Source: a virus | Taxonomy: Duplodnaviria > Caudoviricetes | Virus record (IMG/VR): IMGVR_UViG_3300032319_000936 | Span: 64,001-128,000 of that record | Direction: 5' to 3' (one strand) | DNA length: 64,000 nucleotides | Shown: in pieces, positions 45,735 to 49,407 of the stretch | How the letters are laid out: each line of letters opens with the position of its first letter | Position numbering within the stretch: the stretch's first letter is position 1 | Notes under the pieces: model-generated | Told to the model about the DNA's origin: nothing | Database searches by the model: none | What the model saw: only the letters and a program-made list of their open reading frames with translations | Program-made: the position numbers and the translations under genes

Positions 45735-47279
45735 TTATCCCTTGATTATTTCATCATTCTCAGTGAGTTCATCAGCTCTAACCCAAACTTCCTCCCCATT
45801 TCTCTGACAAAGGAATCTGTGGTTGTGAGAGCATGTTACCACGTTACCATCCTCGGTCTCTATTTCAATAACAGGGACTTTGCCATTATAGAATATTTTT
45901 TCACATTCCTTAGTTCCGAATCGTGTCTCAACTTTAACTTTATCGTCAAAGAAAACCCACTGTTGCTGGCCAGATTCTTCTATCGATTTCCAGTCTATAT
46001 TTCTCTCTTCTAATATTTCTATATAGGACTTAACTCCACGATCGGTTCTGATTCTTGATTCAGGCACAAGACAACTGGCTGTAGGCATGGGTGCCAGGAG
46101 TAAAGAGTTTCTAACACCGTGTTTCATAACATCCTTTCTCAATTTACCCCAATCCCATCTCCCTGAAAGATCATCATCATTGAAACCCCACATATTGAAC
46201 TGGAATTCTCCTTTGCTAATCGGTGAGCCCTCAAATGATTCGTATGCACCATTAGCTTTTGCTAGATCTTTAGAAGCTGTGCATGATGCAAAATAGATTG
46301 TCTCAAAAATATCAGAGTTTATCTTTCTGGCTTCTTCCGACGTGAATCCGATACCCATGATAGCATATAAATCTGCCAATCCCTGGATACCTATTCCGAT
46401 TGGTCTGTGCTTCGTATTGGATCTCTTGGTCTCCTCTGTTGGATAGTAGTTAACATCAATAACCTGATTTAGATTAAGTGTTGTCTGATATGCCACCTTA
46501 TAAAGCTCATCGTGATCAACGTCACACTTGCCTCTTATTAACTTCGTTGTTCTAGCGTCGGTCGACTTTAAGAACTTGTTAACTGGAATGGATGCAAGGT
46601 TACAAACAGCTTGTTCCTCCTTAGAAGTAACCTCCATGATCTCGGTACATAAATTAGAACTCTTGATTGTGCCGATATTCTTCTGGTTAGATTTCTTATT
46701 CGCGTGGTCCTTGTATAGGATATAAGGAGTTCCGGTCTCGATTTGTGACTCAATTATCTTCGCCCAGAGATCTCTTGCTTTGAGTGTTTTTCTAGCCTTT
46801 CCAGCTTCCTCAGCAGCAATATAAGCTTGGTCGAAGGCATCTCCGTATAATTCCCAAATCCCTTCCACATCAGATGGAGAGAATAAAGACCATTCGCCAT
46901 TTTCTTTTACTCTCTTCATGAAGAGATCAGGTGTCCAAAGAGCCAAGAAAAGATCACGAGCTCTTCTTTCTTCCTTACCTGTATTCTTTCTAAGATCTAA
47001 GAAATCCTCAATGTCAGCATGCCAAGGCTCCATGTAGATAGCGAAGGATCCTTTTCTGCGGCCGCCCCCGTTATGCACTATTGAGATATCAGTAGAATAA
47101 TTTGGTACATCCTTAACTCTCAGATCATATAGATTAGAATCTGCTATCTCAGCTTTTTTAACTCCCTTTACCCTATTAAATTTTAATTTTTCTAAAGAAA
47201 GGCTAACTGATTCCTCTCTTATTTCCCCATCGATCTCAGGATGATGCAAAAAGACATTTTTAATTTTTCCCATTTTCAT
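45735..47279 (-). CDS. nrdA: ribonucleotide reductase alpha, fragment 2 (IntC-1 + catalytic core + IntN-2)
   Basis: VHN|[34 protein letters not shown]. Confidence 0.93.
   Translation of the reverse strand: [514 protein letters not shown]
45738..46073 (-). mobile_element. split intein N-half 2 (112 aa), NrdA
   Basis: CLVPESRI...TCSHNHRF...[12 protein letters not shown]. Confidence 0.9.
47070..47279 (-). mobile_element. split intein C-half 1 (70 aa), NrdA, Gly at +1
   Basis: [21 protein letters not shown] followed by GGG. Confidence 0.85.
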
Positions 47280-47280
47280 T

Positions 47281-48174
47281 TTATATTATCTCACTTTTTT
47301 TATTTTTTTCATCCCATATATGAAATTCAAATTTGAATCCCTTAAATACGCAAGACTCTTTTTTAGCTATGTTCTTTTCATAATCCAGTCTTAAACTATA
47401 ATCCGATTTAACTTCTACTATTCTATTTTCTGGAACTATATAGAGGTCAGGATAGTACTCCCTTTCAATCCCCTTAAAAAAATACACAATTGGATCATTC
47501 TCCTCAAATCCTATTTTTAAATCACTTCTTTTGTATTTTTTTAAAAATTCGGGTATAACAAATCTTTCATATCCCTGTACTCTTATCAATTCACCTTCAT
47601 GTGAAATAGTATAGGATTTGTAGGATTGTTCTTTTTTTCTTCTACATATGTTGGAACATGTTTTTCTAAATCCTTTGTTTGTTAATCTTTCTTTAGCTGG
47701 TTTCCCGCAAACTTCGCATTTAGGATGGTCCACCACATCATTCAAAAACATATGGATCATTATCCTTTTATCTGAGAAATTACTGTATCTGTTTTTTAAC
47801 TCCTCAATTAGAATATAATTCTCCATTAGCATCTGTGTAACTGAACCACATTTTTTTTGTTTTTCTAAACTATCCTCAGTAAGTGATTGTTTAAATTTAT
47901 CCAGTGTATCTACAAGAAATTTATCGCTCAATTCTTTATATTCGCCTTTGCTGTTATATTTTTTATAGGATCCTCTAAATTTCTTAAATCCTAATTTATC
48001 TCTAGGTACTTCGTGCAATCCATTCTCATACAAATAGGAAATTTCTTCGTACGGTAACCCATAGAATCCCATCTCTTTAGACCACTCTATGATATTTAAA
48101 GTCTTATCCGGATAATGCGAGGACATGTACGAATATTTTCTGAATTTTCCAGATTTGTCTTCTTCCATAGTCAT
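47281..48174 (-). CDS. free-standing putative homing endonuclease (Zn finger + PD-(D/E)xK) between split-intein halves
   Basis: CEVC...CSNIC; YYPDLY...IVEVKS. Confidence 0.8.
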   Translation of the reverse strand: MTMEEDKSGKFRKYSYMSSHYPDKTLNIIEWSKEMGFYGLPYEEISYLYENGLHEVPRDKLGFKKFRGSYKKYNSKGEYKELSDKFLVDTLDKFKQSLTEDSLEKQKKCGSVTQMLMENYILIEELKNRYSNFSDKRIMIHMFLNDVVDHPKCEVCGKPAKERLTNKGFRKTCSNICRRKKEQSYKSYTISHEGELIRVQGYERFVIPEFLKKYKRSDLKIGFEENDPIVYFFKGIEREYYPDLYIVPENRIVEVKSDYSLRLDYEKNIAKKESCVFKGFKFEFHIWDEKNKKSEII

Positions 48175-48219
48175 TGAATATTTTTAATTTATATATCAGA
48201 CCAGGGCGGAGTTTTTATA

Positions 48220-49407
48220 TTAAAAGCTTAGCAAAATATCCTCGCCGGTAATATTTTTTGCCTCTATCCATTCTGGATTTATGGTTCCAGATTCGAATTT
48301 AATCTCTATATTTTCTATGAGATTTCCACCCTTAATGCATAGAAATAAATGGTCCTCGGTAACTATATTTTTACCACCATCTGTTTCTATTTCGACCATT
48401 ATTTTATCTGATGATCTTGTGACTATCTTTTCTTCAACCAAATGATATTCGCCATCGGAAGAAAGTACTAGATCACCCGCTTCGATCTCTTCTATCTTTT
48501 TATCACCTCCACTAACTCTAATTAGGGTCTCACCAATAAAACACTGATCTACGTACCTCGCAGTCTCATTAAAAACTCTTAGCATCGGTATAATACCATT
48601 GGAATTACCATTTGTACCTTTGATGTAAGATCCTGTGCTTCTAATGTTATGAATAGCCAATCCTATTCCTCCTGCATTCTGTGAAATAACAGCAACATCT
48701 GATAATGTCTTGTAAATACCAGGAATTGAATCATCGTCCATCATTAACAGAAAGCAAGACGAAAGCTGAGGTTTCTTAGTACCGGAATTAAACAGGGTTG
48801 GTGTTGCATGTGTCATCATGTGGTTAGAAAGAAGCTCGTAAGTTTTAATAACGTTCTTCATATCATCTCCCCATATACCAGCGGCAACACGCATATACAT
48901 GTGCTGTGGTGTTTCTGCTACCTCACCGTTTGTTTTTAACAGGTAACTTTTCTCGAGGGTCTTAAAGCCAAAATACTCAAAATCAAAATCTCTCTCGTGA
49001 AGTATTGCACTATCCAGCTTGTTTTTATTCTGCATTACAACCTGATAGGTTTTTTCGCTAATCATCCCAGCTGGCTGATTAGTAACAGGATCTATGTAAT
49101 TATAAAGAGTCTCTATAGTATCTGAGAATTTCTTCTTTGTTGTTTTGTGCAGTCTAGAAACTGCAATTCTAGAAGCTAGAATGGAATGGTCAGGATGCTT
49201 TGGTATCATGGAAGCAGCTGTCTCAGCTGCTAAGGTGTCCAACTCCTGAGTGGATATACCATCATAGATTCCCGCGATTACCTTCTGGGAGATACCCACA
49301 GGGTCAACTAGGTCCTGGTTTAGACCATAGGTCATCTTTCTAATTCTATTAGAAACTTTCTCAAATCTCACTGGTTCTTTAGAACCGTCTCTCTTAATTA
49401 CTTGCAT
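48220..49407 (-). CDS. nrdA: ribonucleotide reductase alpha, fragment 1 (ATP cone + N-terminal part + IntN-1)
   Basis: VIKRDG ATP cone, [24 protein letters not shown]. Confidence 0.93.
48223..48543 (-). mobile_element. split intein N-half 1 (107 aa), NrdA
   Basis: CFIGETLI...VTEDH...[15 protein letters not shown]. Confidence 0.9.

Follow-up and report, generated by a model that had tools for sequence, protein, structure and literature searches.

Glycine in place of the +1 nucleophile in an intein family of the ribonucleotide reductase specificity loop

RESULTS AND DISCUSSION

A split intein followed by glycine interrupts loop 2 of a phage NrdA

We analyzed 64,000 nucleotides of a virus of the class Caudoviricetes (positions 64,001 to 128,000 of the IMG/VR record IMGVR_UViG_3300032319_000936), hereafter referred to as the window. 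In this freshwater phage, the gene for the alpha subunit (R1) of a class Ia ribonucleotide reductase (RNR), nrdA, consists of three open reading frames (ORFs) on the minus strand that are joined by split inteins. Judged by its sequence, the first of these, NrdA intein 1, is a genuine, selected split intein in a mobile family, yet it lacks the defining Cys, Ser, or Thr at the +1 position of the downstream extein and is followed by Gly instead. The alignments described below assign it, in split form, to a large family of allelic inteins that share one exact site in loop 2 of RNR.

The first ORF, 48220-49407 (-), encodes the N-extein, 48544-49407 (-), and then the N-terminal intein half, IntN-1. 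The N-extein comprises the ATP-cone, the all-alpha domain, and the first segment of the barrel (Pfam PF03477, PF00317, and PF02867, and PDB alignment) and ends in ETARYVDQ, the final Gln of which corresponds to Q288 of yeast Rnr1, within loop 2 as delimited in the available text of PMC2896522. IntN-1, 48223-48543 (-), is 107 amino acids (aa) long and begins CFIGETLI, with Cys1 encoded by TGT at 48541-48543, block B (TEDH) at 48349-48360 (-), and the stop codon at 48220-48222. The second ORF, 45735-47279 (-), starts with the C-terminal half, IntC-1, 47070-47279 (-), whose block G reads ISIVHN and whose terminal Asn is AAC at 47070-47072. The first C-extein residues follow directly as Gly+1 (GGG, 47067-47069), Gly+2 (GGC), and Gly+3 (GGC) at 47061-47069 (-), and then RRKG. 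A sequence-only reading of the window had reported this Gly-Gly-Gly after SIVHN, together with intact Cys1, TEDH, and His-Asn motifs, and all of these were located as described (47061-47072, minus strand, for the C junction). The middle extein, 46074-47069 (-), makes up most of the barrel (PF02867, 1.3e-124) and ends in APMPTAS. The ATP-cone, all-alpha, and barrel domains and the likeness to a solved R1 (1zyz, E 2.2e-122) identify the product as class Ia RNR alpha.

When YVDQ is joined to GGGRRKG, the result is the loop-2 motif found in yeast and human R1 with nothing left over, and intein 1 lies between Q288 and G289 in yeast numbering. Because the exteins abut without a missing residue in the alignment to yeast R1 (1zyz), the +1 residue is the first Gly, which bears out the earlier statement that the native motif leaves no room for a +1 nucleophile. 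The joined exteins also match the intein-less alleles of 42 viral loci. A shifted splice register was considered and ruled out, since the N- and C-exteins already equal the intein-less motif residue for residue. In the chain of a second PDB match to the middle ORF, VDAGG replaces the wild-type VDQGG, so the residue altered there is the Gln that precedes the intein. Residues Y285, D287, Q288, and R293 belong to loop 2 of the specificity site, and single loop-2 substitutions unbalance deoxynucleoside triphosphate (dNTP) pools, according to the available text of Kumar et al. 2010 (PMC2896522). As single substitutions already disturb dNTP pools, an intact backbone at this position would be favored.

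The glycine junction is conserved across independent assemblies and homologues

A sequencing error hiding a Cys, Ser, or Thr codon had been named as a possible refutation and can be ruled out. Contigs from three independent studies (X6, X7, and X8) each span 46900-48700 unbroken with 25 to 26 substitutions and no indel, and 47065-47072, which holds the Asn and Gly+1 codons, is unchanged in all three; a fourth (X4) has only a synonymous change at 47064, in the Gly+2 codon. All 34 IntC-1 homologues (61 to 100% identity in that part) read (I/L)VHN|GGG(R/K)RKG, and all 29 IntN-1 homologues read YVDQ|CF.G(D/E)T...TEDH. In the freshwater runs behind X4, X6, and X8, the match to contigs from other organisms is limited to the conserved extein (window positions 47011-47060), after which these contigs continue without an intein, so that empty and occupied alleles co-occur in the same metagenomes. 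The IntC-1 homologues P0002-P0033 are C-fragments either of about 500 to 512 aa with a terminal Pfam intein match or of about 565 to 624 aa without one; given these two length groups, the second NrdA split intein looks optional, and intein 1 is kept.

The residues expected to act in catalysis are likewise conserved. Across 123 N-terminal domains of the family, Cys1 and the block B His are invariant (123/123 each), and the full TxxH motif is found in 119. The terminal Asn is present in all 34 split members, each of which ends in HN, and in all 78 contiguous Gly-type inteins, where the penultimate residue is His in 74 and Lys in 4, and Gly+1 and Gly+2 are both kept without exception. The block F Asp is invariant in an alignment of 10 sequences. 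These patterns show that the catalytic residues for thioester formation and Asn cyclization are under selection, and the conservation of Cys1, the block B His, and the terminal Asn argues against purely passive docking of the two halves. A His at position -7 is found in 46 of the 78 Gly-type members and in 1 of 19 Ser-type members; it was rejected as a general adaptation to Gly+1, as IntC-1 of the window has Asp at this position.

Several genomes appear to depend on a Gly+1 precursor for RNR activity. We searched five bacterial genomes that carry the intein for RNR genes. In three (G001 and G002, both complete chromosomes, and G004), only the intein-bearing nrdA was found, with no second PF02867 gene and no NrdD, and in the remaining two a second PF02867 gene is present. 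In the virus record of the window (180,758 bp, estimated to be 66% complete), the only nrdA is the intein-bearing one, and it adjoins an intact nrdB. De novo synthesis of dNTPs proceeds through RNR alone (PMC3267527, available text), and organisms with a sole nrdA of this kind must therefore obtain active enzyme from a Gly+1 precursor.

An allelic family in phages, giant-virus-like contigs, and bacteria

The sequence-only reading had suggested a survey of other inteins at the VDQ|GG site, and we carried this out in viral contigs, protein sequences, and bacterial genomes. A scan of viral contigs returned 80 loci, 67 of them with a readable junction, of which 42 are intein-less (YVDQ|GG(G/N)KR...) and 25 bear an intein. 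Every one of the 25 inteins is followed by GGG; 4 are split like that of the window, and 21 are contiguous and end in HN or KN. Ten contiguous loci were traced upstream: nine reach the N junction YVDQ|C, giving inteins of 349 to 365 aa, and the tenth (L011) ends at a contig edge before it. Many of these viral contigs carry giant-virus metagenome-assembled genome (MAG) names. One such contig (L016) holds a second, canonical intein in the same R1 at SSNLC|, downstream of the Gly+1 intein.

The contiguous relatives are ordinary inteins by fold and profile. A representative (L005) matches PF14890 over its cutoff (46.7 bits) and LAGLIDADG_3, and its AlphaFold2 (AF2) model (predicted local distance difference test [pLDDT] score, 78) is closest to PI-SceI, TliVMA, and PI-PfuI. 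IntN-1 aligns with the first ~113 residues of these relatives, their N-terminal splicing domain, and IntC-1 aligns collinearly, although weakly (21 to 32% identity), with their last 75 residues; the split point therefore coincides with the place of the LAGLIDADG insertion. IntC-1 is long at 70 aa, as had been noted before, compared to 40 aa in the second NrdA intein and 47 aa in a topoisomerase II intein of the window. From the alignment, its extra length would be a segment before block F kept from the contiguous relatives, which may be inherited rather than an adaptation.

To cover proteins more broadly, a profile of the N-terminal domain was compared with 1.84 billion representative sequences, yielding 7,966 proteins at E <= 0.001, a number that counts inteins regardless of insertion site and should not be taken as the family size. 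Among the best 150 matches, which were the ones analyzed, 87 carry the domain immediately behind the (D/N)Q of the RNR motif. In 64 of these 87 we were able to place the C junction, with Gly+1 in 45 and Ser+1 in 19 (...YVNQ|C...GLVHN|SGKRKG). Among the same 150, a Cys, Ser, or Thr comes after each match at another site, except for two very low-scoring C-terminal matches. One genome per prokaryote species was also scanned with the pattern TA(K/R)YVDQC, which favors Gly-type hosts. The 25 matching bacterial genomes are mostly Bacteroidota (Saprospiraceae, Cytophagales, and Chitinophagales), together with Marithrix, Opitutales, and an actinomycete, and 24 of them encode an uninterrupted intein ending in HN|GGGKR. 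The sole interrupted member, in a Saprospiraceae MAG (L092), has a frameshift at ~2537-3600 inside the endonuclease part with both splice junctions intact, which may reflect faulty assembly or decay of the endonuclease domain.

Overall, 81 of the 100 members with both junctions readable have Gly+1 and 19 have Ser+1. Because Gly-type sequences were the source of both the profile and the DNA pattern, the sample behind these counts leans toward Gly-type hosts. The intein of the window shares with the Ser+1 intein of Cafeteria roenbergensis virus (CroV) its insertion after the Gln of Y(V/I)(D/N)Q and a homologous N-terminal splicing domain, as expected of alleles at one site.

Glycine may be the older state at this site

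We asked which +1 residue came first by using two trees. In a quick maximum-likelihood tree of 123 N-domains over 115 columns, in which many forks are weak, 18 of the 19 Ser+1 inteins group together within a background of Gly+1 lineages, with at least three state changes. A second tree, thinned to 106 inteins of the site and rooted with 10 inteins from other sites, was used for parsimony and has Gly at its base, with the Ser clade (Shimodaira-Hasegawa-like approximate likelihood ratio test [SH-aLRT] support, 99) eight nodes deep. Supports along the path to this clade range from 61 to 99, and most side branches are of the Gly type, one of them holding a stray Ser row (P0079). For an alignment this short and sampling that favors Gly, these trees are suggestive only of Gly+1 as the older state and Ser+1 as derived.

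Intein 1 combines features of class 1 inteins and of type A bacterial intein-like domains

Intein 1 resembles class 1 inteins in having a HINT domain with blocks A, B, F, and G, a Cys1, a TxxH motif, and a C-terminal His-Asn, and in being inserted in frame at a conserved host site such that its removal restores the host motif. It departs from them at the +1 position, where Cys, Ser, or Thr is replaced by the first of three Gly residues. The two halves in the window score just below the Pfam cutoffs for Hint (27.8 bits) and Hint_2 (25.2 bits), and the IntN of a split relative (L004) scores above them (30.5 and 30.4 bits, respectively). The gene layout is that of a fractured gene: IntN and IntC are in two ORFs on the same strand, which flank a free-standing endonuclease ORF.

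Type A bacterial intein-like (BIL) domains have reportedly been studied by Amitai 2003, Dassa 2004, and Aranko 2013. A HINT domain with Cys1 and a C-terminal His-Asn but without a +1 nucleophile also fits the definition of type A BIL domains given in the available text of PMC4031507. However, type A BIL domains lie in variable regions of nonconserved bacterial proteins and have no homing endonuclease (PMC7765530), whereas intein 1 is found within a conserved, functional loop of an enzyme that is essential, reconstitutes the motif of its host exactly, and belongs to a family accompanied by a LAGLIDADG domain or by a free-standing endonuclease. The Pfam family PT-HINT (PF07591) scores 15 bits for the IntN of the window and 20.5 bits for that of L004, against a cutoff of 27.7.

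How a precursor without a +1 nucleophile could mature

The RNR of this phage probably reaches its mature form by a chemistry that has never been demonstrated for a true intein. We consider splicing of the kind proposed for type A BIL domains, by a Cys1 thioester, Asn cyclization, and attack of the freed Gly amine, to be the most likely reading, at about an even chance. In such a reaction, the two halves would associate into a HINT fold, Cys1 would undergo an N-S acyl shift to place a thioester on Gln-1, and cyclization of the terminal Asn would free the alpha-amine of Gly+1. The unhindered Gly amine, kept close to the thioester by the fold of the intein and by an RNR barrel that has already folded, would then attack directly and form the native Gln-Gly peptide bond. 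A route without a +1 nucleophile through thioester formation, Asn cyclization, and free-amine attack has been proposed for type A BIL domains (PMC4031507, available text, citing Aranko et al.). Ligation by aminolysis had been one of two options raised from the sequence: the absence of a nucleophile that it starts from proved real and conserved, and it has this BIL precedent, which supports the option in part. The broader proposition, that these are true inteins splicing both in cis and in trans through the freed Gly alpha-amine, with Gly+1 older and the CroV-type Ser+1 derived, stands in our estimate a little short of even.

Several points weigh against this reading. The final ligation step is wholly one that we infer, and the association of IntN-1 with IntC-1 is predicted from homology. 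The Gly and Ser counts are drawn from the biased sample described above, and the block F His of the contiguous relatives is Pro in the split subfamily. The Ser+1 clade (19 of 100, including the CroV type) demonstrates that the same scaffold also occurs with a canonical nucleophile, so that the Gly+1 forms could be less efficient or merely cleave. Among type A BIL domains, cleavage products dominate, and one BIL domain spliced only once its +1 residue was changed to Cys, according to the available texts of PMC4031507 and PMC7664689.

The main rival is excision without ligation, in which hydrolysis or thiolysis of the thioester and Asn cyclization would release the intein and leave NrdA as a nicked, noncovalent complex held by the barrel fold. 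The conserved residues are precisely those on which both cleavages depend, BIL domains that lack a +1 nucleophile yield mainly cleaved products (PMC7664689), and the NrdA of phage Aeh1 works as two chains (PMC2677866 and PMC3045599, available texts). We nevertheless regard this outcome as unlikely, though the most serious of the alternatives, because the nick would fall inside loop 2 beside Q288, where single substitutions already disturb specificity. Moreover, the Aeh1 enzyme depends on interaction domains that it gained from the mobile element (PMC3045599, available text), and beyond the intein itself no such domains were seen here.

Split intein halves generally bind tightly, which would suit a simpler role in which they only hold the NrdA pieces together, with no bond made or broken and the intein retained. 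If so, Cys1, TxxH, and HN would be expected to drift, yet they are invariant in 29/29 IntN and 34/34 IntC homologues. The same residues are invariant in the contiguous relatives, where there is nothing to dock and the retained insert would place 300 to 430 aa in loop 2. The second option raised from the sequence, a self-cleaving docking module that brings the halves together, is thus disfavored in its purely passive form, which we rate as improbable. Only marginally less improbable is some other chemistry or helper, for instance a nucleophile that escaped recognition, participation of Gln-1, or sealing of the junction by a ligase or transpeptidase of the phage or host. We retain it because the family spans phages, giant viruses, and bacteria and the last step is not directly observed; across such hosts, however, no common helper is obvious. 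The nearest C-extein hydroxyl, Ser+8, was rejected as a hidden nucleophile on chemical grounds: its own amine is tied up in a peptide bond, and the final O-N shift could not take place. An artifact or dead locus, through a hidden Cys, Ser, or Thr codon or a pseudogene, is hardly credible. The assemblies of three studies and the 34/34 and 29/29 homologues agree, the exteins show no damage and closely match R1 proteins of known structure, and in three bacterial genomes the interrupted gene is the sole RNR gene; together with the conserved catalytic residues, these observations contradict the suggestion that the pair is inert and the locus nonfunctional.

A putative homing endonuclease lies between the intein halves

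A free-standing ORF of 297 aa, 47281-48174 (-), occupies the space between IntN-1 and IntC-1, and the start codon of IntC-1 is 1 nucleotide past its stop codon. The ORF matches Pfam PF24308 (DUF7487; 3.4e-15) and, weakly, the PHROGs family phrog_3339, annotated as "homing endonuclease" (1.2e-4). All 20 of its homologues belong to PF24308, and the same ORF lies between IntN and IntC in the loci L001, L003, and L004. Conserved features include a CxxC...C..C cluster and, in a C-terminal restriction-endonuclease-like (Vsr/TnsA-like) domain, a YYPD...EVK motif. Fold comparison of its AF2 model (pLDDT, 82.8) with VIA-align gave middling Z scores for TnsA (8.9), Vsr (7.3), and the catalytic domain of the homing endonuclease I-Bth0305I (6.2), in each case confined to residues 185 to 297 and not extending to the N-terminal two thirds, and a Foldseek search of the PDB with the model returned no match at E <= 0.001. 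Based on these matches and the model, we consider the ORF a putative Vsr/PD-(D/E)xK-like homing endonuclease. The 45-nucleotide spacer before the ORF, 48175-48219 (-), contains TATAAATT, which is one base off the T4 late-promoter word TATAAATA. A hairpin before the endonuclease start, as in Dassa 2009, was not supported, as the predicted fold of 48150-48245 was no better than that of shuffled sequences (z, 0.18).

Other inteins and genes of the window

The remainder of nrdA is joined by a second, canonical split intein. IntN-2, 45738-46073 (-), has 112 aa, begins CLVPES (PF14890, 4.4e-10), and ends the second ORF; IntC-2, 45575-45694 (-), has 40 aa, ends in MVSHN, and is followed by Thr+1 (TAQIMG) in the third ORF, 44918-45694. 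The C-extein, 44921-45574 (-), supplies the end of the barrel and the C-terminal tail (PF02867, 7.7e-44). Directly upstream of nrdA, the small-subunit gene nrdB, 49426-50415 (-), is intact (PF00268, 9.3e-109).

Five inteins are present in the window, and NrdA intein 1 is the only one without a +1 nucleophile. The gene for a family B DNA polymerase is divided into two pieces, 50977-52395 (-) and 28850-30526 (-), which lie about 20 kb from each other, and the second piece holds a mini-intein with Ser+1 (YSDTDS|C...LVHN|SNYVAF). A topoisomerase II/GyrB-like gene, 39130-40869 (-) and 38321-39019 (-), carries a split intein with no endonuclease gene between the halves; its N part ends ...FIVEGL|CIHEDE, and its IntC of 47 aa ends VVSHN|SAMG, again with Ser+1. 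A contiguous LAGLIDADG intein with Cys+1 lies in the ORF 17650-19545 (-) (...ERVP|CFTGEIE...CTVHN|CTIGYH). The Hsp70/DnaK gene (55780-56367 and 54071-55375) is interrupted at ...YDLGG|GTFDVS by a group I intron, 55406-55795 (-), which scores 50.6 bits against the Rfam model RF00028 (gathering score, 50). The window also has a full-length transfer-messenger RNA (tmRNA) gene, 24118-24484 (-) (RF00023; 65.2 bits; E 3.6e-23), and encodes DnaJ, 34707-35759 (-), a RimK-like ATP-grasp enzyme, 26877-28364 (-), a UvdE UV endonuclease, 36395-37309 (-), and an adenylate kinase, 44255-44896 (-).

Relation to known systems and significance

The loop-2 site itself and sequences with Gly+1 at it are already known. 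The InBase entry for the CroV RNR large-subunit intein has the same insertion point (...RYVNQ|C...VHN|; PMC5784728 supplement), and its N-domain motifs and the 18-member Ser+1 clade place it in the same family, the CroV sequence itself being outside our tree. It differs from the intein of the window in having Ser+1 (SGRRKG) and in being contiguous with a LAGLIDADG domain, whereas the latter has Gly+1 and is split. The supplement of PMC5784728 also lists contiguous Gly+1 inteins at this site in Pandoravirus inopinatum, Pandoravirus salinus, and Pandoravirus dulcis (RNR intein 1, YVDQ|C...|GGGKRKG) and in Cedratvirus A11 (YVNQ|C...AHN|GGRRKG). Green, Novikova, and Belfort 2018 (PMC5784728) tabulate these alleles as sequences, and the main text has neither the word "glycine" nor a remark on the nucleophile.

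The fractured genes of Dassa et al. 2009 (PMC2677866, available text) have the same layout as here, with split-intein halves in two same-strand ORFs and a Vsr-like or GIY-YIG ORF between them, and were likewise found in phage-like NrdA. However, their inteins NrdA-1 to NrdA-7 lie directly N-terminal to the thiyl-radical Cys, whereas intein 1 lies about 150 residues upstream of that site, and the available text does not describe a missing nucleophile. The nrdA of phage Aeh1 is also interrupted by a free-standing endonuclease gene (of the HNH type) and yields separate chains that assemble, but it has no intein, and the fragments stay noncovalent (PMC2677866 and PMC3045599, available texts). Closest in proposed chemistry are type A BIL domains, which share with intein 1 the N-terminal Cys, the C-terminal His-Asn, the absent +1 nucleophile, and the proposed route, and which mostly cleave (PMC4031507 and PMC7664689, available texts). 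The same two reviews, in the text available, state that a +1 Cys, Ser, or Thr is needed for transesterification and that only BIL domains lack it.

Literature searches, which left subscription journals, bioRxiv supplements, and the supporting information of PMC10710043 outside their scope, found no discussion of the missing +1 nucleophile at this site; on Gly+1 or nucleophile-lacking inteins they returned only reviews and BIL papers, for the junction peptides a single unrelated paper, and no paper on the allele of the window. The supporting information of PMC10710043 reportedly describes "atypical C-terminal residues" in an intein cluster related to Nucleocytoviricota, which might bear on what was known before. 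What is likely new here is a mobile intein family without a +1 nucleophile, both contiguous and split, with a chemistry that, by analogy, likely resembles that of type A BIL domains.

In phages, giant-virus-like contigs, and bacteria alike, the family lacking the +1 residue is inserted in a functional loop of an enzyme that is essential, and in some genomes no RNR gene other than the interrupted one was found. If the Gly+1 junction is ligated, protein splicing would not need a branched intermediate, and these would be natural, fast-evolving split inteins that leave no Cys, Ser, or Thr scar. Nucleophile-free splicing, if true, would constitute a fourth mechanistic class of inteins and provide a natural tool for scar-free ligation at glycine. 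If the intein only cleaves, it would follow that RNR tolerates a nicked specificity loop, a novelty in RNR biology.

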